Source: Dehalococcoidia bacterium (GTDB taxonomy: Bacteria > Chloroflexota > Dehalococcoidia > Bin125). From it: a stretch of DNA of 64,000 nt. Positions 2,383-63,075 of the stretch are shown piece after piece. The translations under genes were made by a program, and so were the position numbers. The stretch spans positions 1,110,273-1,174,272 of the forward strand of contig OZ247431.1 of the NCBI GenBank assembly GCA_965232875.1, written 5' to 3'. Under the pieces are notes generated by a model. That model made no database searches. It was not told where the DNA came from and worked only from the letters and a program-made list of their open reading frames with translations. Numbering within the stretch: the first letter of the stretch is position 1; each line of letters opens with the position of its first letter.

Positions 2383-4830
2383 GTGAGCGACTCCATGCCT
2401 GACGATCTGGTCCCGGCGTATGAAGGCTTGGTCGTCGTCGATCTGTCGCGACGATTGTCCGGCGCCTTCGCAGCGCGACTCTTTGCCGATCACGGCGCCG
2501 ACGTCGTGATGCTGGAGCCGCCAGAGGGTCATCCCTTGCGGCATGAAGCGCCGTTCCTCAACGACGAACCGGGTGTGGAGCGTTCTGCGCTGCATGCCTA
2601 TGCCAACTGGAACAAGCGCTCGGCGATGATTGCCGATCCGTCCGAATCCGAGCCCTGGATTGCCGGCGCTGATGTCGTGATCACGACCGATGGCCCTGCG
2701 GCGCTCGCGGCCTGGCCGCTGTCGGGGATGCGATCCGACGCGGTGCATCTCTCGGTGACGCCCTTTGGACTGGATGGCCCGCTGGCCAACACCCCAGGAG
2801 GCAACCTGACGATCAATGCGCGCTGCGGCTGGGCCTACATCAATGCGATGCAGGACGACGCTCCGGTGACGCTGCCCTCTCGACAGACCGGCCTCGTTGG
2901 CGGTCTTGCTGCGTTCGTGGCAGGGTCGGCGGCGCTGAGACGCCGATGGGAATCGCAGCTGCCAGAGGTGTGCGATGTTCGTGAGATGGAGGCGCTGACC
3001 CACACTGGCTATCCGTGGTCAATCGGCGCGATTTACCAGGGCATTGGCTGGTCGCGCGGCGCAGCCGGCGGTCGTCCTCGCGGAGAGCCCGGTCCGCTGT
3101 TCGACGCCGCCGATGGACATATGAACTTCGGCTTCGGCGACTGGCACAACTGGCAGCAAGCGATGGAGCTGTTCAATCTGCCCGACCAGGCTGCGCGCGA
3201 AGAGCTGCATGCGCACGACGGCCGTTACTCGAAGGACCTCGAACCGGTCCGAGCTGGCGTCGCCCGTGAACTAGTCCAGATCGAAAAGTGGCCGCTGTTT
3301 CACAGCCTGGCCAAGCTGCGTTGCATCTCGGGCGTGCTGCAGACGATCCCTGAACTGGTCGAACACGAACAACTGCTATCGCGAGACTTCATCGTCGAGA
3401 CCGAGTTGGACGGCGAGACGGTCCGGGCGTCAGGCAATCCGCACCCGACTTCGCCACCGAGTTGGTCGCTGCGATCTCCGGCACCAGCACTGGGCTCCGA
3501 CACCGAAGGTCCGCTGAAATCCAATGCCGTGCCAACCGAGGTCGCTGCAACAGCAACGGGTCCGTTGGACGGCGTTCGCATCCTCACATTCACCCAGGCC
3601 TGGAGTGGCACCTTCTGCACGGAACTGTTGGGCTTCCTCGGCGCTGACGTCGTGCAGATTGAGGCTTTGCAACGGGTCGACATATGGCGCACGGTAGGTC
3701 CCCGGGTGCCGAACGCCATTCTGGACAACGCGAAGCCACAACACCCCCTCAACACTCAGGGCCTCTACAACGCGGTCAATCTGAACAAACGAGCAATCAC
3801 ACTGGACCTGCGCTCGGACGAGGGCAAAGAGCTGTTCTGGCGAATGGTTCCCCAATTTGATGTCGTCGCCGAAAACTTCCGCCCCGGCGTCCTCGATGGT
3901 TGGGGCATCACGCTGGACGCCCTGGCTGAACAGCGCCCCGACATCATCCTGGCCAGGATCTCCGGCTACGGTATCACCGGCCCCTATGCGCCATATCCCG
4001 CGAACGGCGCGACCACTGAGCCGATGTCTGGGTTGTCGTCGATTCACGGGTATGAAGACGAACCGGGCATGAACACCGGTGGTCTCTATCCCGATCCGAT
4101 CTCTGGATACTCGGCTGCGTCCGCAATCATCGCCGCCATCGCTCGGCGAGCACGCGTCGGTGGACCGCAGGAGATTGATGTCGCGATGCTCGAAGCGATG
4201 GGCATTGTGGTCGGCGATGCCATCGCCGAATACGATGCGACCGGCCGGACTCCAGGGCCGCTTGGCAATCACGACCGACAGCGGGCCCCGCACAATATCT
4301 ATCCCTGCACCGGCGACGATGAGTGGGTCGCCGTCTCCGTGGAATCGGACGACGAGTGGCGAAGTCTGTGCCTGGAAATGGACGCCGCCGGTCTCTCCGA
4401 GGATGCGCGATTCGCCGATGCCGCATCGCGCAAGGCGAATGAGTCGGCGCTGGATACGATCGTCGCGGAGTGGACCTCAGCGCAGGACTCAACGGACGTG
4501 GAGCGACGATTGCTCGGGATAGGCATCGACGCGGCGCGTGTGAATCCGATGTACGACCTGTTCGGTTCGCCTGATCCGTATCTGGAATCGAGTGGCTTCG
4601 TCCAGTCAGTCGATCACCCAGAGGTCGGCCCCTCGTGGTTGCCGGGAGCCCCATGGCGCTTCAGCGGATCGGAAGATCGCCTGCTGAGACCGGCGCCATG
4701 CGTGGGTGAGCACTCGTTCGAGGTGTTGTCGCAAGAGCTGGGCATCAGCGAAGCTGAGTATCGATCGTTGGTGGAGCGCCGCATCACAGGAACGCTGTAC
4801 GAGGCCGCGGAGGCAGCGACAGCAGACTGA
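2383..4830 (+). CDS. Fused tandem family-III CoA-transferase (two CaiB/BaiF domains in one 815-aa polypeptide)
   Basis: N-terminal half LEGLVVVDLSRRLSGAFAARLFADHGADVVMLEPP and second half GPLDGVRILTFTQAWSGTFCTELLGFLGADVVQIE. Both match the CaiB/BaiF/Frc N-terminal signature. GTG start with GAGGA 5 nt upstream. Confidence 0.85.
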   Translation: MSDSMPDDLVPAYEGLVVVDLSRRLSGAFAARLFADHGADVVMLEPPEGHPLRHEAPFLNDEPGVERSALHAYANWNKRSAMIADPSESEPWIAGADVVITTDGPAALAAWPLSGMRSDAVHLSVTPFGLDGPLANTPGGNLTINARCGWAYINAMQDDAPVTLPSRQTGLVGGLAAFVAGSAALRRRWESQLPEVCDVREMEALTHTGYPWSIGAIYQGIGWSRGAAGGRPRGEPGPLFDAADGHMNFGFGDWHNWQQAMELFNLPDQAAREELHAHDGRYSKDLEPVRAGVARELVQIEKWPLFHSLAKLRCISGVLQTIPELVEHEQLLSRDFIVETELDGETVRASGNPHPTSPPSWSLRSPAPALGSDTEGPLKSNAVPTEVAATATGPLDGVRILTFTQAWSGTFCTELLGFLGADVVQIEALQRVDIWRTVGPRVPNAILDNAKPQHPLNTQGLYNAVNLNKRAITLDLRSDEGKELFWRMVPQFDVVAENFRPGVLDGWGITLDALAEQRPDIILARISGYGITGPYAPYPANGATTEPMSGLSSIHGYEDEPGMNTGGLYPDPISGYSAASAIIAAIARRARVGGPQEIDVAMLEAMGIVVGDAIAEYDATGRTPGPLGNHDRQRAPHNIYPCTGDDEWVAVSVESDDEWRSLCLEMDAAGLSEDARFADAASRKANESALDTIVAEWTSAQDSTDVERRLLGIGIDAARVNPMYDLFGSPDPYLESSGFVQSVDHPEVGPSWLPGAPWRFSGSEDRLLRPAPCVGEHSFEVLSQELGISEAEYRSLVERRITGTLYEAAEAATAD

Positions 4831-4867
4831 ACCAGGGACCGGTATAGACCCCGGGCCCGTTTTACAT

Positions 4868-5082
4868 GATTCAGTCCCCGCTGTACGGAGACCCTTGCAA
4901 AACTTCCGAATCCCCTCTCCCCCCCTTGCGGGGGAGATGTCACGGAGTGACAGAGGGGGGGTCGGCTGATGATGACCAGGTGAGGCTCCCGAACAGCGCC
5001 CTCCCTGCCTTCGGCATCTCCCCCGCAAAGGGGGGAGAAGGGGAGTTATTCCAAGGTCTCCGTAGAGCGGGAACTGGAACTG
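4868..5082. repeat. Copy A of a ~200-bp long imperfect palindromic repeat element (nested hairpins)
   Basis: Inner arms CTCCCCCCCTTGCGGGGGAGATG / CATCTCCCCCGCAAAGGGGGGAGAAG. Central palindrome GTCACGGAGTGAC. Outer arms CAGTCCCCGCTGTACGGAGACC / GGTCTCCGTAGAGCGGGAACTG. Near-identical copies at 12352-12535 and 62893-63075. Sits immediately 3' of the CoA-transferase stop. Confidence 0.75.
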
Positions 5083-5169
5083 AAGCCCTTGAAGAACGAT
5101 GGCGCTGATATCGTAGCGACAGTTGACGAGACTGAATTCGCTTCGTCCCGACTAAATCTGGAGTGATGT

Positions 5170-8100
5170 ATGCCGCCGAGTGGATCTGTGTCGCCCGTTT
5201 CCAAGCTGTTGATTGCCAATCGTGGCGAGATTGCGATTCGTGTGGCTCGTGCGGCCTCCGATCTGGGCATTGCCACCGTCTCCGTCTACTCCAAGGACGA
5301 CGCCAGGTCTCTGCACGTTCACGCCGCCGATGAAGCGGTCGAGCTCGATGCGCTGGGCGTCCAGGCATACCTCGACATTGACGGCCTGATTGCGGCCGCG
5401 CAATCGACCGGCTGCGACGCGGTGCATCCCGGTTACGGATTCCTGTCAGAGTCGGCAGAGTTTGCCCGACGCTGCCGAGATGCAAGCATCACCTTCGTCG
5501 GTCCGACAGCGCATCTGCTCGATCTGTTCGGGGACAAGGTCCGCGCCAGGCAGGCTGCGAGAGAAGCCGGCGTGCCGGTGATTGAAGGCTCCGACCAGGC
5601 AGTCACCCTGAGCGAAGCGGTTGACTTCTTCGAGTCGCTGGGCGAAGACGCGGCGGTGATGCTCAAGGCGGTAGCAGGCGGCGGCGGACGAGGCTCGCGG
5701 GCAGTCACCGACATCAACGAAATGGAGGCCGCCTGGGAGCGCTGCGAGTCCGAGGCGCGCATGTCGTTCGGCTCCGGCGCGCTGTACATCGAGCAGCTCA
5801 TTCCCCGCGCCCGACACATCGAAGTGCAGGTGATTGGAGACTTGCACGGCGGTGTCGGTCACCTGTGGGAGCGCGAGTGCTCGGTCCAGCGGCGATTCCA
5901 GAAGATCGTGGAGATCGCGCCGGCGCCACACCTGGAAACATCCACGCGCGAAGCCATCGTCGAGGCGGCCGTACGTATCGCACGCGACGTGGGCTACTCG
6001 TCTCTGGGCACGTTCGAGTTCCTGTTGGACGCCTCAGACGGCTCGAATGACGCCTTCTTCTTCCTCGAGGCGAACGCGCGACTACAGGTCGAGCACACCG
6101 TGACCGAACAGGTCACCGGCGTCGACCTGGTCCAGTCGCAACTGCGAGCTGCGCAAGGCGCATCAATCTCCGACCTCGGCCTCGACGATCCGTCCTGGCT
6201 GCGTCCACGTGGGTTCGCGATTCAGACCCGCGTCAACATGGAAACACTCACGCCCGACGGCTCGGTGCGTCCGGCGTCAGGCACGCTCAAGGCTTATGAG
6301 GCGCCCTCTGGGCCGGGTGTGCGCACCGACGGCTTCGGCTACGTCGGCTACCAGACATCTACTTCGTTCGACTCGCTGCTGGCGAAGGTGATCGCGCACG
6401 CTCCGGCGCCAAGATTCGAGGATGCGTTGACGCGCTCGTTGCGCGCGCTGTCCGAGTTCCGGATTGAAGGCGTCGCGACGAACATCCCGTTCCTCACCAA
6501 CGTGCTGGAGCATGCCGACCTCGTCGAAGGTCGTGTCCACACTCGCTGGGTCGACGAGCAGATGGCCGAGTTGGCGACGTTCAATGGCGCGCAGCGCGTG
6601 CGCTATCTGCAAGCGGAAGCACCGACGGCCGACAGCGGGTTCGCCGGCGCGCGCGTTGATTCGCGTGATCCATTGGCGCTCTTTCAGCACGATCAGGAAG
6701 TCAAGCAGCAGCAGTCCTTGCAGGTCGTCGAGGAAGAGGCGCCGGACTTGACCGGTCCGGAAGGCTCAATCGGTCTGCCCGCGCCGATCCAGGGCACGAT
6801 CGTTTCGATCATGGTCGAAGAGGGTCAGGAAGTGCGGAAGGGCCAGGACCTCGTCGCGATGGAAGCGATGAAGATGGAGCATGTGATCTCCGCCGACCGC
6901 GACGGGATCGTCAAGGCGTTGGGCTGCTCCATCGGCGATGTGATCCGTGAAGGCTTCCCACTCGTCTTCATCCTCGAGGCGGAAGTCTCGGTCGAGGCGA
7001 TCGGTGACGACGACCTGATCGACCCCGATTTCATCCGACCCGACCTACAGGAAAACTACGACCGACACGCCTACACGCTGGACGAAAATCGGCCCATCGC
7101 TGTGTCCAAACGTCGCGGACGCGGCTACCGCATGCCGCGCGAGAACATTGAACAACTCGTCGATCCGGGTTCATTCCAGGAATACTGGCCGCTGATCGTG
7201 GCGCGTCAGCACCAGCGCAATACCGACGAGCAACTGAGAGAGAACACACCTGCCGACGGTCTGCTCGCCGGTACGGCGACGATCAATGGCGACCTGTTTG
7301 ACGATGAGCGGGACGCCCGCGCGATTGTCGTGCATTACGACTACACGGTGCTCGCGGGCACGCAGGGCGGTCGCAATCACTACAAGCAGGACCGCATGTT
7401 TGAAATGGCGCGCCGCTTCAACTTCCCCATTGTCTTCTACACCGAGGGTGGGGGCGGAAGGCCCGGCGACGACCGGACCGGTCCCGGCGTGGCGTTCGAT
7501 ACCTACACGTTCACGCAGTTTTCGAAGCTCTCGGGCCAGGTGCCGCTGGTCGGTGTGACCAATGGTCGCTGTTTCGCCGGCAACACGGCGCTGCTTGCCT
7601 GCTGCGACGTGATCATCGCCACTGAAGGCTCAACCGTCGCGATGGGCGGTCCGGCAATGATCGAGGGCGGCGGCCTCGGCATCTATACGCCGGAAGAGGT
7701 CGGACCGATGTCGTTCCAGGTCCCGAATGGTGTGGTCGACATCCTCTGCAAGGATGAGGAAGAGGCGACCGATATCGCCAAGAAGTATCTGAGCTACTTC
7801 CAGGGACCGATCAAGGAATGGACCGCGCCCGATCAGCGCCGTCTGCGCCACATCGTGCCTGAGAACCGGTTGCGTCTCTACGACATGAAAGAGATCATCC
7901 ACACGATCGCCGATGAAGGCTCGGTGCTGGAGATTCGCGAGAAGTTCGGGATCGGGATCATCACTGCGTTCATCCGCGTCGAGGGACATGCGATCGGCGT
8001 GATCGCGAACAACCCGCATCACCTGGCCGGCGCGATCGACTCTGACGGCTCGGACAAGGGCGCGAGATTCCTGCAGCTCTGCGACGCGTTCGATATCCCC

Positions 8101-8592
8101 GTGCTCAGTCTGATGGATTGCCCCGGCATGATGGTCGGCCCCGATGTCGAAGCGACGGCGCTGGTGCGTCACTGTGCACGGATGTTCAACACCGGGGCCA
8201 ACTTGAGTGTGCCGCTGTTCGGCGTGGTCGTGCGCAAGGCGTATGGACTCGGAGTCCAGGCGATGTGCGGGGCCAGCGCGCTGGTCGGATTCTTCACTGT
8301 CGCCTGGCCGACGGCCGAGTTCGCCGGCATGAACATCGAAGGTTCAGTGAAGCTTGGATATCGCAAAGAACTCATCGCGATCGAGGACCCCGAGGAGCGG
8401 ATCGAGACCTACGAGCACATGGTGGCGCGAGCGTACGACAACGCCAAAGCAGTCAACTCAGCCGCCGGCGGTGGTCTCGATGATGTGATCGATCCCGCAG
8501 ACACGCGCGAGTGGATTGCCAACGGCCTCAAGCGCCTCCCGCCAACGCCAGAGCGCACTGGCAAGAAGCGTCCCTACATCGATACGTGGTAA
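5170..8592 (+). CDS. Single-chain multidomain biotin-dependent acyl-CoA carboxylase (BC - BCCP - CT)
   Basis: 1140 aa. N-terminal biotin carboxylase (LIANRGEIAIRVARAASDLGI..., ATP-grasp). Biotinyl domain with the EAMKMEH biotinylation motif near residue 560. C-terminal ~520-aa carboxyltransferase domain (propionyl-CoA carboxylase beta-like, GGGRPGDD). RBS GGAGTGA precedes the start. Confidence 0.9.
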   Translation: MPPSGSVSPVSKLLIANRGEIAIRVARAASDLGIATVSVYSKDDARSLHVHAADEAVELDALGVQAYLDIDGLIAAAQSTGCDAVHPGYGFLSESAEFARRCRDASITFVGPTAHLLDLFGDKVRARQAAREAGVPVIEGSDQAVTLSEAVDFFESLGEDAAVMLKAVAGGGGRGSRAVTDINEMEAAWERCESEARMSFGSGALYIEQLIPRARHIEVQVIGDLHGGVGHLWERECSVQRRFQKIVEIAPAPHLETSTREAIVEAAVRIARDVGYSSLGTFEFLLDASDGSNDAFFFLEANARLQVEHTVTEQVTGVDLVQSQLRAAQGASISDLGLDDPSWLRPRGFAIQTRVNMETLTPDGSVRPASGTLKAYEAPSGPGVRTDGFGYVGYQTSTSFDSLLAKVIAHAPAPRFEDALTRSLRALSEFRIEGVATNIPFLTNVLEHADLVEGRVHTRWVDEQMAELATFNGAQRVRYLQAEAPTADSGFAGARVDSRDPLALFQHDQEVKQQQSLQVVEEEAPDLTGPEGSIGLPAPIQGTIVSIMVEEGQEVRKGQDLVAMEAMKMEHVISADRDGIVKALGCSIGDVIREGFPLVFILEAEVSVEAIGDDDLIDPDFIRPDLQENYDRHAYTLDENRPIAVSKRRGRGYRMPRENIEQLVDPGSFQEYWPLIVARQHQRNTDEQLRENTPADGLLAGTATINGDLFDDERDARAIVVHYDYTVLAGTQGGRNHYKQDRMFEMARRFNFPIVFYTEGGGGRPGDDRTGPGVAFDTYTFTQFSKLSGQVPLVGVTNGRCFAGNTALLACCDVIIATEGSTVAMGGPAMIEGGGLGIYTPEEVGPMSFQVPNGVVDILCKDEEEATDIAKKYLSYFQGPIKEWTAPDQRRLRHIVPENRLRLYDMKEIIHTIADEGSVLEIREKFGIGIITAFIRVEGHAIGVIANNPHHLAGAIDSDGSDKGARFLQLCDAFDIPVLSLMDCPGMMVGPDVEATALVRHCARMFNTGANLSVPLFGVVVRKAYGLGVQAMCGASALVGFFTVAWPTAEFAGMNIEGSVKLGYRKELIAIEDPEERIETYEHMVARAYDNAKAVNSAAGGGLDDVIDPADTREWIANGLKRLPPTPERTGKKRPYIDTW
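8541..8592. repeat. Left copy of a 52-bp imperfect direct repeat (last 17 codons plus stop of the carboxylase gene)
   Basis: GCCAACGCCAGAGCGCACTGGCAAGAAGCGTCCCTACATCGATACGTGGTAA. Matches 9654-9705 at 48/52 positions. Confidence 0.8.
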
Positions 8593-8596
8593 TCGC

Positions 8597-9649
8597 TACA
8601 TGCACTGGCTGGCATTTCTGGCGCTATTGACCACGATCATCTTCGGGGCTTGCGCCGACGATGAGCCGCCCGATGATTCGACCCCTCGTCCTGAGCGTCA
8701 AGAGACTGATTCCCCCAGTACCCCACCTACGATCGATGAGATCGAAGGTGAGACGCTCGCCGACATCATGCGCATACTCTATCGGCGCCAGATGAGATCG
8801 CATCCCACAGTCTGTGCGTATGTGCTGGGTACGGGCGTCTACGGTGTGAGCCAAGCGCTTGACCGAGACACGCACCCAGCGCAGATAGTGGCTGACCTTG
8901 TGGAGGGTTGGACAGGAAGCATCTGGATCGGCGAGTTTGGGGACTATGAACTCTCCTGGACGGAGCTGCAGCGAATTGTGCTGGTCGCTCCAGACGGGGT
9001 CTCCCTGCCGCATCAGGGCTTCTATGACACAATCGGCGACGCCCTGGAATTCAAGTACATCCGAGGTAAGTTTGAGCTGACTATGATCGGACGTCTCTTC
9101 GATTGTAGCGATCCGAACGGCGCCTATCCCGATGGAATCGGCGAACTCGCTCAGCGTCACAGCGAAGATGAGGGGTTGTTCGTCTATGACGTTGAGGAAG
9201 TGGTCGACATTGAACACGGTACAAATAGTCACGTTGATCAGAGGTACTCGATCCTGGAGGTCGCCGATCACAATGATTGGCCTCCTGCGGTTGATCTGCC
9301 TGTGTTGGCCGACCTGTTGACGGAAACGGCGCGCGAGCATTGGTCATCGGAATTCGTCTGTGTGAGTGTGACGAGGCGGCCGGTCGATTCGGGCGAAGCC
9401 GGGACTGGTTTGACGGCTGACTCGCCGCTGCCCGAAGCATTCCTGCGAATTTTCGACGAGCTCCGATTCGACCCTGAGCAGGCGACACTGCTGCTGATCG
9501 GGACACGCAACATTGTCCTCGCCTGGGTCGAGTCGTATAACGACGCCGGCAGAGTGACTGCAGCCGAGTTCGTCAAGAGCGAAGACGGCAATTGGTCCGA
9601 ACGGACTTGGGTGTCCATGTATGGATGTGGCCCACTGGGCAGTGAGTAG
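8597..9649 (+). CDS. Hypothetical lipoprotein (MHWLAFLALLTTIIFGAC lipobox), 350 aa
   Basis: ORF with signal peptide plus Cys. Start placed at the ATG just after the carboxylase stop; the track's upstream start overlaps the carboxylase frame. Appears somewhat less GC-rich by eye. Flanked by the 52-bp direct repeats. Confidence 0.6.
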   Translation, partial: YMHWLAFLALLTTIIFGACADDEPPDDSTPRPERQETDSPSTPPTIDEIEGETLADIMRILYRRQMRSHPTVCAYVLGTGVYGVSQALDRDTHPAQIVADLVEGWTGSIWIGEFGDYELSWTELQRIVLVAPDGVSLPHQGFYDTIGDALEFKYIRGKFELTMIGRLFDCSDPNGAYPDGIGELAQRHSEDEGLFVYDVEEVVDIEHGTNSHVDQRYSILEVADHNDWPPAVDLPVLADLLTETAREHWSSEFVCVSVTRRPVDSGEAGTGLTADSPLPEAFLRIFDELRFDPEQATLLLIGTRNIVLAWVESYNDAGRVTAAEFVKSEDGNWSERTWVSMYGCGPLGSE

Positions 9650-9653
9650 CGTC

Positions 9654-9705
9654 GCCAACGCCGGGGCGCACCGGCAAGAAGCGTCCCTACATCGATACGT
9701 GGTAA
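9654..9705. repeat. Right copy of the 52-bp direct repeat; encodes ...PTPGRTGKKRPYIDTW* in frame, i.e. a second copy of the carboxylase C-terminus
   Basis: GCCAACGCCGGGGCGCACCGGCAAGAAGCGTCCCTACATCGATACGTGGTAA. Confidence 0.8.
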
Positions 9706-9839
9706 CGAATTGTTCACCGCTGGCTATCGGCTGCCCTGTGGCTCTGCAATCTCTATAGAGTGAACCGACCACAGGAGAGTCCGGGAACTCGCCAGGGTTG
9801 GAGGGCTGATGGTCATGCAGAGCAATTGGCTACGAGATC

Positions 9840-10475
9840 GTGAAGGGTTGGGTCGGCTGGCTCGGCCGCAGCATTGGAGTTGCGGCGCTCCTGCTGGTGT
9901 TGGGGCTGACCCTGCCGCAACCCTCTAGCGACGCCGCGCAGGGCACGAAGTCGTGGGCGTCAAGCACGGTGTACTTCGAGCGCAAAGGAGACTGGTCCAG
10001 CGTTCCGAACAGCTATCGGAATGCCGTGCTTCGAGCGGACAACGAATGGGCCGACAACACCCGCTGGAATCCAATCATCACCGCGAGCCCGGCACACAAC
10101 GGCATCTACTGGGGTAATGACGAAGATCCATGGGCCTCTCGAAGTTGCACTCCGCCAGTTTCAACTTCCGATGCGTTCGGCAAGGAATGTAAGCGATTCG
10201 TCCCTGGGAGGATCACTAACTCGGAGATCATGTTGAATGCGGCCAGGTCATGGGATAGCGATCGTGTTCAGGGTGTCATGACTCACGAGCTTGGGCACTC
10301 AGGAGGCTTGACCCACGATCCGGTTTACACAGCAGAGATCCCGAGCACCTCGACCTGTCAGTCCACGAATCAGCATCGTTGGACGATGTGCTCGAAGTTC
10401 TTGGACGACAACGCATCCTGGGCGGCTAGCACCGAACGGCATGATCGCGATGATGCCGACGCGATGTACCCGTAG
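9840..10475 (+). CDS. Secreted metzincin-type zinc metalloprotease (snapalysin/M7-like small neutral protease)
   Basis: Signal peptide. Extended zinc-binding motif HELGHSGGLTHD (HExxHxxGxxH). C-terminal Met-turn-like ADAMYP. 211 aa. Confidence 0.75.
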   Translation: MKGWVGWLGRSIGVAALLLVLGLTLPQPSSDAAQGTKSWASSTVYFERKGDWSSVPNSYRNAVLRADNEWADNTRWNPIITASPAHNGIYWGNDEDPWASRSCTPPVSTSDAFGKECKRFVPGRITNSEIMLNAARSWDSDRVQGVMTHELGHSGGLTHDPVYTAEIPSTSTCQSTNQHRWTMCSKFLDDNASWAASTERHDRDDADAMYP

Positions 10476-10517
10476 CCGTCAGGCCCAACCTATGGCACTC
10501 AGAGAAAGAACAGAACC

Positions 10518-11060
10518 ATGTCTACCTCCAGACTCAACCGACTGACAGGAGCTAGGTGGCTTCGGATCGGGATCTTGGTGATCGTCGTTGCCGCGGCCAC
10601 GGCCGTCTGGCTGACTCGATCAGGGGAGCGCCCGGTGCTCGCGATCGCGCACATGTCGCTTAACGAGATCGAGTCGCAATTGTATGCGGAGCTCAAGGCG
10701 ATTCACGGCCGCGAAGTTTGCGGCATCGAGGAAACTTCAACGCCAGACGCCAGCGGCTACAGCAGCAACCTCGTCTCGGAGCACGAGAACGGCCTACCGT
10801 CCCAGCGAGTCATCGAATGGCTCGAAGAGTCTGAGCACAGCTTCGACCAGGTCGACGACTATCAATTGTCCGGGTCAAGCGTGGTGTTTCTCGCCTATGC
10901 AGAAGACCGCAATGAGGACAGCCTCGTCACGTTGGTTAACGGTGATCAGGTACATGCCAACGTCGTGGTGGTGCACGCTCTGTCGGGCGGGAACAGAGGC
11001 GAGGATCGCTGGGAGATCGTTCACGGTGCTTCGTACTGGATTTGCGATCCGTTGGAGTAA
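10518..11060 (+). CDS. Hypothetical N-terminally membrane-anchored protein
   Basis: 180-aa ORF with one N-terminal TM helix (WLRIGILVIVVAAATAVWL). No recognisable family. Confidence 0.5.
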   Translation: MSTSRLNRLTGARWLRIGILVIVVAAATAVWLTRSGERPVLAIAHMSLNEIESQLYAELKAIHGREVCGIEETSTPDASGYSSNLVSEHENGLPSQRVIEWLEESEHSFDQVDDYQLSGSSVVFLAYAEDRNEDSLVTLVNGDQVHANVVVVHALSGGNRGEDRWEIVHGASYWICDPLE

Positions 11061-11213
11061 CGAACCCAGCCCAAGCGGCCAGCGGCGAGGAGACTCGTTG
11101 CTGGGCGGTTATCGTTGAGAGCCGATCGGACATTCGACCGAAGTGTCGATCTCGTCCGAGGTGTCGGAGAAGATGCGGCGAACTGCCGCAGCGACTCCGC
11201 CTGTGTTGGAAGG

Positions 11214-11720
11214 ATGTCTTTCACGGTGCGCCGCCTGCTTGCTAGTTTGTTCGCGGGCGCAATCGTTGCAACTTTGAGCGCTGCCTGCGGCGCTGCCGAC
11301 GACCGAGGGCAGAACTCGGTCGACCAAGCCCAGTTCAGCTTGGTCGGCCTCGATGGACACGAGGCGACGCAAGCGGTCTACGAGCGCGTGGGCGAACGGT
11401 ACGGCCTCGATTGCGAGCAGAGTTGGGAAGCGTCGCTCGATGTCACCGGACTCGATCCCAACTACCCCGAAGCGAGCGGTCTAGCGGACGGTTCGGAGCC
11501 GACGCCGGAGATCCTCGACGCGATTCGAGAGGCGGGTAGCCATCCCGACTCCTTCGAGCACTGGTACGTGACATCGACACGTGCGGTGTTCGCGTCGTTC
11601 GAGATTGAAGAGGGCTGGAACGCGCTGCCGGAAGTGATTCAGGTCTTGTGGCTCGGCTACGACGCGGAAGGCACGCCGCGCTGGGGCGCCGATTACGGAG
11701 CGTTGCTGGGGCCATGTTGA
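11214..11720 (+). CDS. Hypothetical lipoprotein (MSFTVRRLLASLFAGAIVATLSAAC)
   Basis: ORF with lipoprotein signal. Start moved to the internal ATG that carries the signal peptide. No family assignment. Confidence 0.5.
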   Translation: MSFTVRRLLASLFAGAIVATLSAACGAADDRGQNSVDQAQFSLVGLDGHEATQAVYERVGERYGLDCEQSWEASLDVTGLDPNYPEASGLADGSEPTPEILDAIREAGSHPDSFEHWYVTSTRAVFASFEIEEGWNALPEVIQVLWLGYDAEGTPRWGADYGALLGPC

Positions 11721-11748
11721 TCGCGGATGCGTGGGACGAAGCGTTGAG

Positions 11749-11825
11749 TGGCGACCCCGAGCGGATTCGAACCGCCGGTCTCCACCTTGACAGGGTGGCG
11801 TGTTAGGCCGCTACACCACGGGGCC
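11749..11825 (-). tRNA. tRNA-Asp (anticodon GUC)
   Basis: Reverse complement GGCCCCGTGGTGTAGCGGCCTAACACGCCACCCTGTCAAGGTGGAGACCGGCGGTTCGAATCCGCTCGGGGTCGCCA folds as a cloverleaf: 7-bp acceptor stem, GTGT/ACAC D-stem, CCACC/GGTGG anticodon stem with loop CTGTCAA, T-arm GGTTCGAATCC, encoded CCA. Confidence 0.85.
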
Positions 11826-11901
11826 GTACGATTCAGTTTAGGCTGACTAGCCGGATTCGGCAACAGCGCATAAGGTGTAGGTAGAGCGTCGGAGGTTGCA
11901 A

Positions 11902-12282
11902 ATGGCTCGCGGATCACGACGGGGACGAGGCGGCTCGAATCGCGCGCAACAGGCTGGCCGGCCGCAGGGCCGGCGCGGTCAACGAGGCCGGGAAGACACG
12001 CTGCCGACTGCGCAGGCCGGCGCGGCGAATGCTCCGGTCGGGGCGTCCCTGAGTGGAAACATCCAGCAGCGGTCACGTGTGGGCGGCGCCAGTACGGCCA
12101 ATACGACAGGTGGGCCGCGCGCAGGCGCAGCCGGCGCACACGAGCGCCGAGACCGCCGCGCGCGCGCCGCCGCCGCGATGCACGACTTCCACTACGTCAG
12201 CGGAGATCTGCGCTGGGTCGCGATCACGACCGTCGCCAGCGTCGCCCTGGTGCTCGCGCTGTGGGCTGCGATCTCGTTCTAG
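11902..12282 (+). CDS. Hypothetical small protein: Arg/Gly-rich N-terminus and C-terminal TM anchor
   Basis: GGAGG RBS 8 nt upstream of the ATG. C-terminal WVAITTVASVALVLALWAAISF. Low complexity, so coding status uncertain. Confidence 0.4.
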   Translation: MARGSRRGRGGSNRAQQAGRPQGRRGQRGREDTLPTAQAGAANAPVGASLSGNIQQRSRVGGASTANTTGGPRAGAAGAHERRDRRARAAAAMHDFHYVSGDLRWVAITTVASVALVLALWAAISF

Positions 12283-12351
12283 CATTGCGCCCCTACCCCA
12301 CTTCACACACCCGATCCCAGCGCCTGCGTGAGTGTCGCAGGAGTCAGACTG

Positions 12352-12535
12352 TTTGGTTGATTCCCAGTCCCCGCTTCACGGAGGCCTCTGCAAAACTCCC
12401 CTTCTCCCCCCTTGCGGGGGAGATGTCACGGAGTGACAGAGGGGGGGCGGCTGATGACGACCAGATAGGGCTCCTGAACAGCGGACCCCCCTCTGCCTTC
12501 GGCATCTCCCCCGCAAGGGGGGAGAAGGGATTCGA
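12352..12535. repeat. Copy B of the ~200-bp palindromic repeat element (lacks the right outer arm)
   Basis: CAGTCCCCGCTTCACGGAGGCC...CCTTGCGGGGGAGATGTCACGGAGTGACAGAGGGGGGG...GGCATCTCCCCCGCAAGGGGGGAGAAGG. Confidence 0.75.
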
Positions 12536-12607
12536 GAGCGCTTGTTGGTGAGGAGCATTTCCTCGCGTGAAGCCAGTATCAGGCGATTTGCCTCTGTGTT
12601 GGCAAGA

Positions 12608-13072
12608 CTAGGTCTGCGGCGGCGGATCAACCAACGCAAACGTCAAGCGACCTTCCGCAGCGGTCTCCCCCTCGACTGTCGCTTTGGCGCTGGCTCGTCC
12701 GATGCCTCGGCGCAGACGATCCATTTCCACTTCGAGTCTCAGTTGATCTCCCGGCACGACCTGGCGTCGGAAACGGACGCCGTCTATTCCGGCGAAGAGA
12801 CCTAGCTTGCCCTTGAACTCGTCAGCCGACAGAGCCGCGACGGCGCCGGTCTGGGCGAGCGCTTCGATGATCAACACGCCGGGCATGATCGGATTGTCGG
12901 GGAAGTGACCCTCAAAGAACCACTCGTTGGTCGTCACGTTCTTGAGACCGACCGCGCGTTTGCCCGGCTGCAGTTCGACAATCCGGTCGACCAGCAGGAT
13001 TGGGTATCGGTGGGGGATGATGCGACGAATGTCTCGTACATCCAGCGGCAGTTCGTAGTCGGCCATGGTCAC
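12608..13072 (-). CDS. fabZ: 3-hydroxyacyl-ACP dehydratase FabZ
   Basis: Hot-dog fold signature [19 protein letters not shown], 154 aa. Confidence 0.9.
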
Positions 13073-13932: not shown

Positions 13933-15423
13933 CTAGCGGGCGTACTCGGCGGCGCGGGTTTCGCGCAGGACGGTGACGCGAATCTGGCCGGGGTATTGCA
14001 GCGATTCCTCGATCTGCTTCGAGATGTCCCGCGCCAGTCGCATCGCGCCGAGATCGTCAATCTCGCGCGGGTCAACGACGACGCGCACTTCACGGCCGGC
14101 CTGGATGGCGTACGCCTGTCCGACGCCTTCGAAGGACGTCGCGATGTCCTCTAGCGCGCGTAGTCGTTCGATATAGCGCTCGACAGATTCCCGTCGTGCG
14201 CCCGGGCGACCGCCCGAAATGGCGTCGGCCATCTGCACGATGATCGCCTCGACTGAGCGAATCTCGACTTCGTCGTGGTGAGCTTCGATGCAGTGCGCGA
14301 TGTTCTCAGACATCTTGAACCGGCGAGCCAGATCGCCACCGATGATGGCGTGCGTGCCTTCGACCTCATGGTCGATCGCCTTGCCCACGTCATGCAGCAG
14401 TGATCCGCGTCGCGTGACTTCGACGTCCGCGTGGATCTCTTGCGCGATCATCGCGCCGATGTGTGCGGTCTCGACCGCGTGTCGGAGCTGGTTCTGTCCG
14501 TAGCTGGTGCGGAAACGCAGGCGGCCGAAGATATCGAGCATTTCGCGCGGCAGCCCACTGCAGTGCGCCTCGATCGCCGCTTCGTCGCCCGATTCGCGAA
14601 TGATGCGGTCGACATCGCGCTGCGCCTTGGCGACGGTTTCCTCAATCCTTGTCGGGTGGATACGTCCGTCGGCGACGAGCCGGCTCAGCGACAAACGACC
14701 GATCTCACGACGTACCGGATCGAACCCGGACACTGTCACGACATCAGGTGTGTCGTCGATGATCAGATCGCAGCCGAGCGCAGATTCGAGAGCGCGGATG
14801 TTTCGGCCCTCTCGTCCGATGATGCGTCCCTTCATCTCGTCGGAGGGGATTTGCACCACCGAGACGGTTGATTCCGTCGTGACCTCTGAGGCGACACGCT
14901 GAATCGCCGTGGCGACAATCTTGCGTGCGCGGGTTTCGGCCTCGTCCTTCGCCTTTTGTTCGGCCTCACGGACGAGACGGCCGGCTTCATCGGAAACTTC
15001 CTGCTCGACTCGCTCGAACAGCACGGTGCGCGCTTCGTCACGGGTGAGGTTGGAGATTTCTTCCAGCCGCTGGTCGTGCTCGGCTTCGCGCTCGTCGAGC
15101 TGGGCGCCGCGACGCTGAAGTCGCTGGCTGTCGCGATTCAGCTTGGAATCGCGGTCGTCGAGCGATTTGACCCGGTCATCCAACGAAGCTTCGCGCCGGT
15201 CAAGGCGATCCACGGCTCGCTGTAGGTCGTCACGCGCCCCGCGAACATCCGCGAGGATCTGGTCTCGTTCAGCTTGCGCTTGTTCCCGCGCGTCTTCTAA
15301 CCGCTCACGCGCCTCCCGATCGGCCTGTTCCCGGGCCTGTTGGATGATGCGTTCGGCTTCGAGCGTGGCCTCGATCCGTGGATCTGGCCCGCCGCGCAGG
15401 AGCCGCATAATGGCTCCCCACAT
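13933..15423 (-). CDS. rny: Ribonuclease Y (KH + HD domains)
   Basis: KH region NDEMKGRIIGREGRNIRALE. HD region LLHDVGKAIDHEVEGTHA. C-terminus IRVTVLRETRAAEYAR matches RNase Y. No N-terminal TM helix appears in this ORF. Confidence 0.9.
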   Translation of the reverse strand: MWGAIMRLLRGGPDPRIEATLEAERIIQQAREQADREARERLEDAREQAQAERDQILADVRGARDDLQRAVDRLDRREASLDDRVKSLDDRDSKLNRDSQRLQRRGAQLDEREAEHDQRLEEISNLTRDEARTVLFERVEQEVSDEAGRLVREAEQKAKDEAETRARKIVATAIQRVASEVTTESTVSVVQIPSDEMKGRIIGREGRNIRALESALGCDLIIDDTPDVVTVSGFDPVRREIGRLSLSRLVADGRIHPTRIEETVAKAQRDVDRIIRESGDEAAIEAHCSGLPREMLDIFGRLRFRTSYGQNQLRHAVETAHIGAMIAQEIHADVEVTRRGSLLHDVGKAIDHEVEGTHAIIGGDLARRFKMSENIAHCIEAHHDEVEIRSVEAIIVQMADAISGGRPGARRESVERYIERLRALEDIATSFEGVGQAYAIQAGREVRVVVDPREIDDLGAMRLARDISKQIEESLQYPGQIRVTVLRETRAAEYAR

Positions 15424-62892: not shown

Positions 62893-63075
62893 ACTCCTCA
62901 TCCCGAGTCCCCTCTCCCCCCTAACGGGGGGAGATGTCACGGAGTGACAGAGGGGGGGTCGGCTGATGATGACCAGATCGGGCTCCCGAACAGCGGACCC
63001 CCCCTCTGCCTTCGGCATCTCCCCCGCAAGGGGGGAGAAGGAGAGTTCTTCAAGGGTCTCCGCTGAGCGGGGACT
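62893..63075. repeat. Copy C of the ~200-bp palindromic repeat element, immediately 3' of tpiA
   Basis: CTCTCCCCCCTAACGGGGGGAGATGTCACGGAGTGACAGAGGGGGGGTCGGCTGATGATGACCAG...GGCATCTCCCCCGCAAGGGGGGAGAAGG...GGGTCTCCGCTGAGCGGGGACTGG. Confidence 0.75.

Follow-up and report, generated by a model that had tools for sequence, protein, structure and literature searches.

How does a short run of genes for exported-type proteins come to lie between a core metabolic gene and a tRNA gene, and what could these proteins do together? The question is raised by a locus of an uncultured Dehalococcoidia bacterium (assembly GCA_965232875.1, contig OZ247431.1), which we studied within a window of 64,000 nucleotides (contig positions 1,110,273 to 1,174,272, forward strand; positions below are those of the window unless a related locus is named). 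There, the 3156 nt between the stop codon (8592) of a fused biotin carboxylase gene and a tRNA-Asp(GTC) gene hold four consecutive open reading frames (ORFs) on the plus strand, ORF1 to ORF4, of which ORF2 encodes a small zinc protease of the metzincin type. In our view, the convergent carboxylase/tRNA-Asp junction is likely a recombination hotspot and the segment an islet that varies between strains; cassettes for exported proteins would be exchanged there separately, with a mobile module of the metzincin and a partner protein as the core. The islet is real and accessory and as such of a known general kind; what is new is a small family of metzincins together with three orphan exported proteins.

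Results

Occupancy of the carboxylase/tRNA-Asp site in related genomes

A carboxylase scan with one genome per species yielded 80 loci (designated by L numbers), and the content of the site was recorded for those 36 related ones, titled Dehalococcoidia, Chloroflexota or Chloroflexi, for which scoring was possible. Many of the related metagenome-assembled genomes (MAGs) are named as sponge metagenome bins, and we take the RHO, IRC and COS bins to come from one sponge-MAG study (PMC8163846). Carboxylase identity across the 36 loci is 77–98%, and all share a backbone of carboxylase, tRNA-Asp, a small ORF, FabZ, PHP and RNase Y. The site is empty in 24 of them, with the tRNA gene 24–99 nt, usually about 24–27 nt, past the carboxylase stop codon. 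The other 12 are filled with inserts of 0.76–6.8 kb and varied content: ORF1 only (L004, L016, L034), ORF1-ORF4-ORF3 (L003), ORF4-ORF3 (L041), a truncated protease gene and ORF3 (L002), an ORF3-like gene (L025) or an unrelated protein of 354–358 aa (L008, L014). L029, L030 and L036 carry several ORF3-like genes and a cluster of ATP-grasp, transglutaminase and alpha-E genes; a protease-like or ORF4-like gene is present in some of them. Even the cassette order changes, as ORF3 precedes ORF4 in the window and follows it in L003 and L041. Because most related loci are empty and the filled ones differ in content, the segment is accessory, as the original prediction, made from the DNA sequence of the window, had supposed; a conserved set of all four genes at this locus was not found.

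On a neighbour-joining tree of the carboxylase, which included two outgroups left unscored for occupancy, filled sites are scattered in a patchy manner, and the six genomes of the window's clade display five configurations. Synonymous divergence (dS) of the cassettes does not follow the core gene: it is 0.86 for ORF4 and 0.41 for the carboxylase between the window and L003, and 0.91 for ORF1 and 0.34 for the carboxylase between the window and L034. Base composition and codon usage, proposed in the original prediction as a check, proved uninformative since both are near-uniform with the flanks. The GC content of ORF1 to ORF4 is 0.579, 0.593, 0.589 and 0.639, respectively, compared to a window gene mean of 0.624 (standard deviation 0.022). 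ORF1 to ORF3 thus lie about 1.4–2 standard deviations below the mean and ORF4 does not deviate, while GC at third codon positions stays within about 1.2 standard deviations. Donors from the same lineage are the likely reason for this uniformity.

An integrase was detected in none of the 13 occupied loci, not even in those with inserts of 4.6–6.8 kb. In the window, where the Pfam scan covered few ORFs past about 23.6 kb, neither the four ORFs (searched against Pfam and NCBIfam) nor the ten scanned neighbours encode an integrase or transposase. The predicted position next to a tRNA gene without such genes held up, and it is the 3' end of the tRNA that the segment adjoins. At the right edge of the insert, L029 (20245–20604), L030 (19034–19407) and L036 (18085–18303) possess two tRNA-Asp(GTC) genes of 76 and 77 nt that are about 92% alike and 140–300 nt apart; the cluster inside these three sites is of the circularly permuted ATP-grasp/transglutaminase/alpha-E kind.

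A protease and its partner form a two-gene module

ORF2 (GTG 9840 to 10475, plus strand) encodes a protein of 211 aa and is followed after 42 nt by ORF3 (10518–11060, plus strand), which encodes 180 aa. All 15 loci that encode a full-length protease, whichever its subfamily, have a gene of the ORF3 family directly downstream of the protease gene, with a gap of 42–50 nt where gene calls were listed; the ORF3 of L030 is a divergent member that is connected to the family via L108 and L029. ORF3-family genes without a full protease occur in five loci, and the reverse was never seen. Identities of protease and ORF3 to the window proteins fall in parallel (86/79, 84/74, 81/82, 80/69, 81/68, 72/49 and 40/29%). 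Judged by gene order and parallel divergence, protease and ORF3 form a fixed bicistronic module with ORF3 as the obligate downstream partner, which bears out the earlier suggestion that the protein encoded after the protease might be its partner.

Mobile elements carry this module from one related genome to another. In L001 it lies between type IV secretion genes (TraG, TrbL, pilin) and genes for Toprim/primase, Rad52 and SSB. The copy in L082 stands beside the gene of a large serine recombinase of 544 aa that abuts tRNA-Met, the 3' end of the recombinase gene overlapping the tRNA. On other contigs the module adjoins IstB_IS21 or type II restriction-modification genes. In both L001 and L082, a relic of about 100 nt of the carboxylase 3' end precedes the protease gene, and homology to the window begins exactly at a second copy of the carboxylase 3' end (DR2, see below). 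The relic implies that these copies were captured from a chromosome arranged like an ancestor of the window. L082 (9754–15309; OZ219765.1, about 1.289–1.294 Mb) even retains a larger part of the locus, consisting of the carboxylase relic, protease, two ORF3 copies, tRNA-Asp, the small ORF, FabZ and a partial PHP. This copy is 87–92% identical to the window's clade and only 75–78% identical to the native empty locus of the same genome (L007), which is direct evidence of transfer between species. A further copy was found in L110 (VXOT01000069.1), a contig binned as Acidobacteriia, where the module is 84% and 74% identical and lies amid numerous small ORFs, with a pair of type II restriction-modification genes and an IS21 helper gene close by; it may reflect either a cross-phylum transfer or the mis-binning of a mobile element.

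Insertion scars at the site

The final 53 nt of the carboxylase gene, stop codon included (DR1, 8540–8592, plus strand), recur in a non-coding copy at 9653–9705 (DR2, plus strand). In the repeat search, 50 of 53 positions were identical with an exact core of 33 nt, for which 0 matches are expected in shuffled sequences. ORF1 is exactly enclosed by the repeat. In L003, too, DR2 is present at this junction (14487–14539), but ORF4 follows it there instead of the protease gene. Each DR2 is slightly nearer to its own DR1 than to the DR2 of the other genome (50 in the window and 49 in L003 compared to 47 of 53 positions). The sequence to the right of DR2 is the one that directly follows the carboxylase gene in L002, which indicates that the arrangement carboxylase-protease came first and that ORF1 was added later along with the 53 nt.

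Other scars are smaller. In L041, 21 nt from the 3' end of tRNA-Asp lie between ORF4 and ORF3, and the insert of L029 includes a 17-nt carboxylase fragment. L041 is the only locus with such a tRNA-Asp fragment; the insert of the window contains none, and so lacks the copy of the tRNA 3' end that a tRNA-integrated island would have at its far edge. We discarded the notion that flank repeats enclose each cassette, as this applies to 4 of the 13 occupied loci only. The edges of the ORF4 cassette share a 10-nt identity, CGTTGCTGGG, at 11096–11105 and 11701–11710. Although noticed post hoc, this microhomology is suggestive of an illegitimate joining of the ORF4 cassette. The heptamer CGTTGAG is likewise repeated, at 11113–11119 and 11742–11748.

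ORF2 is a minimal metzincin

The N-terminus of ORF2 has the build of a signal peptide with an n-region, a hydrophobic stretch and the putative cleavage site SDA|AQ; it is followed by the two metzincin motifs, HELGHSGGLTHD and RWTMC. The zinc motif, H149-E150-L-G-H153-S-G-G156-L-T-H159-D160, fits the consensus HExxHxxGxxH/D. In the close family (10 sequences, at least 42% identity) H149, E150, H153, G156, H159, D160, the Met-turn and four cysteines are invariant, and paralogues at 42–43% identity keep both motifs and the four cysteines. A wider alignment of 20 sequences retains E150 and H153 throughout and H149 and G156 in at least 90%; H159 is replaced in distant members, a few of which have Asp as the third ligand. 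Within the Met-turn (R-W-T-M183-C), T182, M183 and C184 are invariant across these 20 sequences.

ORF2 shows the sheet, active-site helix and C-terminal helix of a metzincin catalytic domain. It consists of a signal peptide and a catalytic domain of about 178 aa without a prodomain: the catalytic domain begins some 10 residues past the signal peptide, its first strand at residue 43, and a search for the cysteine-switch propeptide (PRCGxPD) found no PRCG in the sequence. Scores stayed below the Pfam cut-offs for Reprolysin_5 (23.6 vs 27 bits) and Peptidase_M10 (PF00413; 20.7 vs 24 bits), and ORF2 also remained under the gathering threshold of the reprolysin/adamalysin families of M12B (PF13688 and related). 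The Asp following the third His is a reprolysin-type feature. More distant library matches of the protease family do exceed the PF00413 threshold. A profile of the family matched solely catalytic domains of matrix metalloproteinases (MMPs) in the PDB, with a best E-value of 1.5e-4. In fold and profile comparisons matrixins were best and snapalysin came next. ORF2 is therefore a minimal metzincin of clan MA(M) that is nearest to M10 and outside M7. The earlier label "snapalysin-like" stands insofar as snapalysin is the second-nearest match; it fails in that the third zinc ligand is His rather than Asp, snapalysin family PF02031 did not match and matrixins scored better.

The family is small: a set of 5.8 billion proteins gave 8 matches, and one of 1.84 billion gave 40 cluster representatives at E ≤ 0.001. 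It appears limited to few MAGs and metagenome contigs; sponge-derived names are frequent among them, and one contig is from a TARA sample. A phage origin was considered and rejected, as IMG/VR contained no relative of the protease and the JGI metagenomes distant metzincins only. On the same 3.33-Mb contig, outside the window, lies a protease paralogue of 235 aa that is 43% identical (P0007); its close relative P0008 in L108 also has an ORF3-like gene downstream.

The protease gene of the window carries a lesion at its start. Alignment with L001, L082 and L083 locates the ancestral start at 9800–9839 (plus strand), with a Shine-Dalgarno sequence GGAGGG at 9800–9805 and an ATG at 9815. Relative to L001 and L082, a deletion of 14 nt separates this ATG from the protease body and thus puts it out of frame, and the old frame now encodes a 37-codon peptide that stops at TAG 9926–9928. 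The protease frame is open solely from GTG 9840, which lacks an obvious ribosome-binding site. Judging by these features, expression of the protease in this genome is doubtful and may be poor.

ORF3 and the orphan proteins ORF1 and ORF4

ORF3 has a single N-terminal hydrophobic helix (residues 6–34 in the model), which would anchor it in the membrane, followed by a predicted extracytoplasmic alpha+beta domain. The AF2 model has a pLDDT of 80, and of about 90 for residues 45–180; it matched neither a PDB fold nor any known inhibitor fold. We found 21 homologues.

ORF1 (ATG 8600 to 9649, plus strand, 349 aa) begins 8 nt past the carboxylase stop codon. Its N-terminus, MHWLAFLALLTTIIFGAC, matches a PROSITE-type lipobox pattern (IIFGAC) with the lipobox cysteine at position 18, which is kept in 4 of 4 orthologues possessing an N-terminus. 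Only 11 homologues occur in 5.8 billion proteins; orthologues at the same site are those of L003, L004, L016 and L034. ORF4 (ATG 11214 to 11720, plus strand, 168 aa) has the lipobox LSAAC with Cys25, counted from this ATG, and this cysteine is invariant in the alignment of a family that comprises a handful of homologues. Its orthologues precede ORF3 in L003 and L041, and the same domain occurs as a C-terminal fusion in L029 and L036. Both ORF1 and ORF4 are predicted lipoproteins, since a lipobox with a conserved cysteine follows a hydrophobic signal sequence. Profile searches in Pfam, NCBIfam, PHROGs and the PDB identified no family for ORF1, ORF3 or ORF4. BLAST single linkage had joined these three proteins, but profile-profile probabilities of 0.4–11% did not support homology and a common origin was rejected.

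Thus all four plus-strand genes are of the exported type that had been predicted for them (two lipoboxes, one N-terminal anchor and one metzincin with signal peptide), with the sole correction that the first starts at ATG 8600 and not at 8597. Export is predicted from sequence patterns, hydrophobicity and conserved pairs of cysteines. The ratio of nonsynonymous to synonymous substitutions (dN/dS) relative to orthologues is 0.14–0.36 for the four ORFs (0.30–0.36 for ORF1 and 0.22–0.23 for ORF4), which identifies them as real coding genes; the carboxylase shows 0.03–0.06, as does FabZ. These values point to purifying but relaxed selection on the islet genes.

Borders and surroundings of the islet

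The carboxylase gene (5170–8592, plus strand) encodes 1140 aa with the Pfam domain order BC-BCCP-carboxyltransferase; on the left, the variable site is bounded by the 3' end of this gene. The right border is tRNA-Asp(GTC) (11749–11825, minus strand; ARAGORN, and Rfam RF00005 with 62.7 bits), the 3' end of which points towards the islet. Ten neighbours were scanned across the two sides; all are core genes and include those for a GMC oxidoreductase, a CoA transferase, FabZ, PHP, RNase Y, RecA and P5C reductase. An Rfam search of 4500–13000 found the tRNA alone, and a promoter and terminator scan of 8400–12400 yielded nothing beyond the expectation from shuffled sequences.

A conserved small ORF of 128 aa (11896–12282) adjoins the tRNA gene, and most relatives share it as a backbone gene. 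Its N-terminal half is rich in Arg and Gly, and a hydrophobic helix lies at the C-terminal side; it had no match in Pfam or PHROGs. A G+C-rich palindromic repeat of 27 nt (CCCTTCTCCCCCCTTGCGGGGGAGATG) occurs at 4913–4939, 12399–12425, 12503–12529 and 63016–63042 with at most 3 mismatches (0 copies expected by chance). Downstream of the small ORF, two copies separated by 77 nt make up a perfect inverted pair, and another lies upstream of the carboxylase gene; the repeat looks like a member of a REP- or MITE-like family of intergenic elements. The fused carboxylase itself has counterparts with 68–72% identity in MAGs of Pseudomonadales, Azotimanducaceae and Myxococcota (L038–L040, L047–L049 and others). 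Identities of this level are unusually high for such distant phyla, so that the carboxylase may have been transferred laterally.

Discussion

Taken together, the islet would be a mosaic of one-gene or two-gene cassettes that are exchanged independently, all of which encode proteins that are secreted or sit on the cell surface and that occur in this lineage only. Cassettes would enter and leave by recombination anchored in the conserved flanks, with occasional illegitimate or Campbell-type joins, one of which would have brought in ORF1 together with the second copy of 53 nt from the carboxylase 3' end. ORF2 would act as a Sec-exported zinc endopeptidase that is structurally nearest to matrix metalloproteinases, and ORF3 as its cognate partner on the outer face of the membrane. 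Still, several observations weigh against such a history. The route of recombination is deduced from scars only, and neither a recombinase nor a circular or excised form was observed for the locus. Repeats of the own flank exist in just 4 of the 13 occupied loci, and hence a uniform att-based mechanism is not shown. L030, with a carboxylase identity of 79%, has protease-like and ORF3-like genes at the same site, so that part of the islet could be old rather than recently acquired. Base composition lends the islet no independent support, and the protease is possibly non-functional here owing to its start lesion and is truncated in L002.

Each of the alternative explanations accounts for part of the data, and each was weakened by our tests. 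If a gene cluster had been ancestral to the junction and was repeatedly deleted, the protease-, ORF3- and ORF4-like genes at the site in the distant clade (L029, L030 and L036; 77–79% carboxylase identity) would be expected, the ORF3 dS of 0.42 between the window and L003 would simply equal the core value (0.41), and the truncation in L002 and the start-codon lesion in the window would represent ongoing decay. However, many independent clean deletions would be needed that each left a spacer of 24–99 nt. Changes in gene order, the 53-nt duplication, ORF4 and L034 ORF1 dS values two- to threefold those of the core, the module on mobile elements and the foreign copy of the locus in L082 would all be left unexplained, and L016 hints at a gain in a lineage with all sisters empty. 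We regard a purely ancestral cluster as quite unlikely. The original prediction had named a decayed island as one of two options. Such an island would go back to a tyrosine-integrase element at the tRNA-Asp 3' end, of which, after loss of the integrase and of most other genes, the four exoprotein genes were left. This would agree with the abutting tRNA 3' end, with the 21-nt tRNA-Asp fragment within the insert of L041 and with the two tRNA-Asp copies that follow the larger inserts of L029, L030 and L036. Yet the 13 occupied loci contain no integrase, the additional genes of the 4.6–6.8 kb inserts belong to the ATP-grasp/transglutaminase/alpha-E cluster, the insert of the window has no tRNA fragment, and the one clear repeat copies the end of the carboxylase gene rather than of the tRNA. 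Moreover, single cassettes vary independently and change their order. With cassettes reshuffled one by one, a decayed island is not the best description, and we hold it to be very unlikely.

A third possibility is that the cassettes are cis-mobilizable units with att-like carboxylase or tRNA-Asp 3' ends that are moved in trans by a large serine recombinase encoded elsewhere. The 53-nt repeat, the identical junction in the window and L003 despite different downstream cassettes and the greater similarity of each DR2 to its own DR1 are in line with this idea, as is the 544-aa serine recombinase beside the locus copy in L082, and a precedent is known from this bacterial class (PMC3146451). On the other hand, repeats of the own flank are confined to the minority of occupied loci mentioned above, the L082 recombinase has no homologue in other carboxylase loci and no tblastn match in the whole 64-kb window, and it abuts tRNA-Met instead of the carboxylase/tRNA-Asp site. 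The ORF4 cassette, bounded by a 10-nt microhomology only, would rather fit illegitimate joining. Mobilization in trans as the general mode therefore appears unlikely to us, and separate exchange of cassettes through the conserved flanks is the reading we prefer. An even bolder version would see the junction as a dedicated cassette-capture site, integrase-less and integron-like, where single att-bearing genes for exported proteins are shuttled in trans between symbiont species by serine recombinases of conjugative elements, so that surface proteins are diversified. The flagship cargo would be an MMP-like enzyme, unannotated so far, that attacks the extracellular matrix of the sponge and is paired with an immunity protein in the membrane; we consider this scenario quite improbable.

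An annotation-based survey of sponge-symbiont MAGs found no collagenase genes (PMC8163846). As the protease family described here scores under every Pfam threshold, it is invisible to surveys of this type, even though its closest structural matches are animal matrix metalloproteinases. If the enzyme were active on host matrix or neighbouring cells, the module would be a mobile, strain-variable trait for host interaction or competition. Beyond that, the locus is a clean natural example of the turnover of gene-sized cassettes at a defined chromosomal point in uncultured bacteria, with empty sites, filled sites and copies on mobile elements all on hand for comparison.

Comparison with known systems

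Among known proteases, matrixins (MEROPS M10A; PF00413, including bacterial matrixin-like metzincins) are closest to ORF2, which nevertheless misses their cut-off. In contrast to matrixins, it has no cysteine-switch prodomain and no haemopexin or other additional domain, and its family possesses two family-specific disulfide candidates. Snapalysin, the small neutral protease of Streptomyces (MEROPS M7), differs in the third zinc ligand, which is Asp there (HExxHxxGxxD).

For the module as a whole, serralysins with an adjacent inhibitor gene (AprA-AprI or Inh type) are the architectural precedent: as in the islet, a metzincin gene is followed by the gene for a small exported protein that stays in the cell envelope. 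Based on this precedent, on the gene order and on the occurrence of orphan partners but never of the reverse, ORF3 would most likely be a self-protecting inhibitor or immunity protein, and less likely a docking or maturation factor. The likeness is one of arrangement; ORF3 had no match in structure or in sequence. Serralysin inhibitors are small beta-barrels, whereas ORF3 is membrane-anchored with a predicted helix packed on an antiparallel sheet, and serralysins are exported by type I secretion, whereas ORF2 carries a Sec signal peptide.

The site itself can be compared with the tandem islands at ssrA of Dehalococcoides, where some integrase-less units have been proposed to be cis-mobilizable and large serine recombinases of about 540 aa are associated (PMC3146451). 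Both systems occur in the same class, at a hypervariable site that immediately follows an essential single-copy gene, and both show direct repeats of the target 3' end (here for the ORF1 unit only, with 50 of 53 nt) and units without their own integrase; the 544-aa recombinase of L082 is of similar size to those of the ssrA islands. They differ in the targets, which are the 3' end of a protein-coding gene and tRNA-Asp in the present case, and in the units, which are single genes of about 0.6–1.1 kb here instead of multi-gene islands. The site lacks an integration module and has repeats in a minority of its occupied loci. Finally, the ssrA islands carry dehalogenases, whereas the cargo of the carboxylase/tRNA-Asp junction consists of exported proteins.

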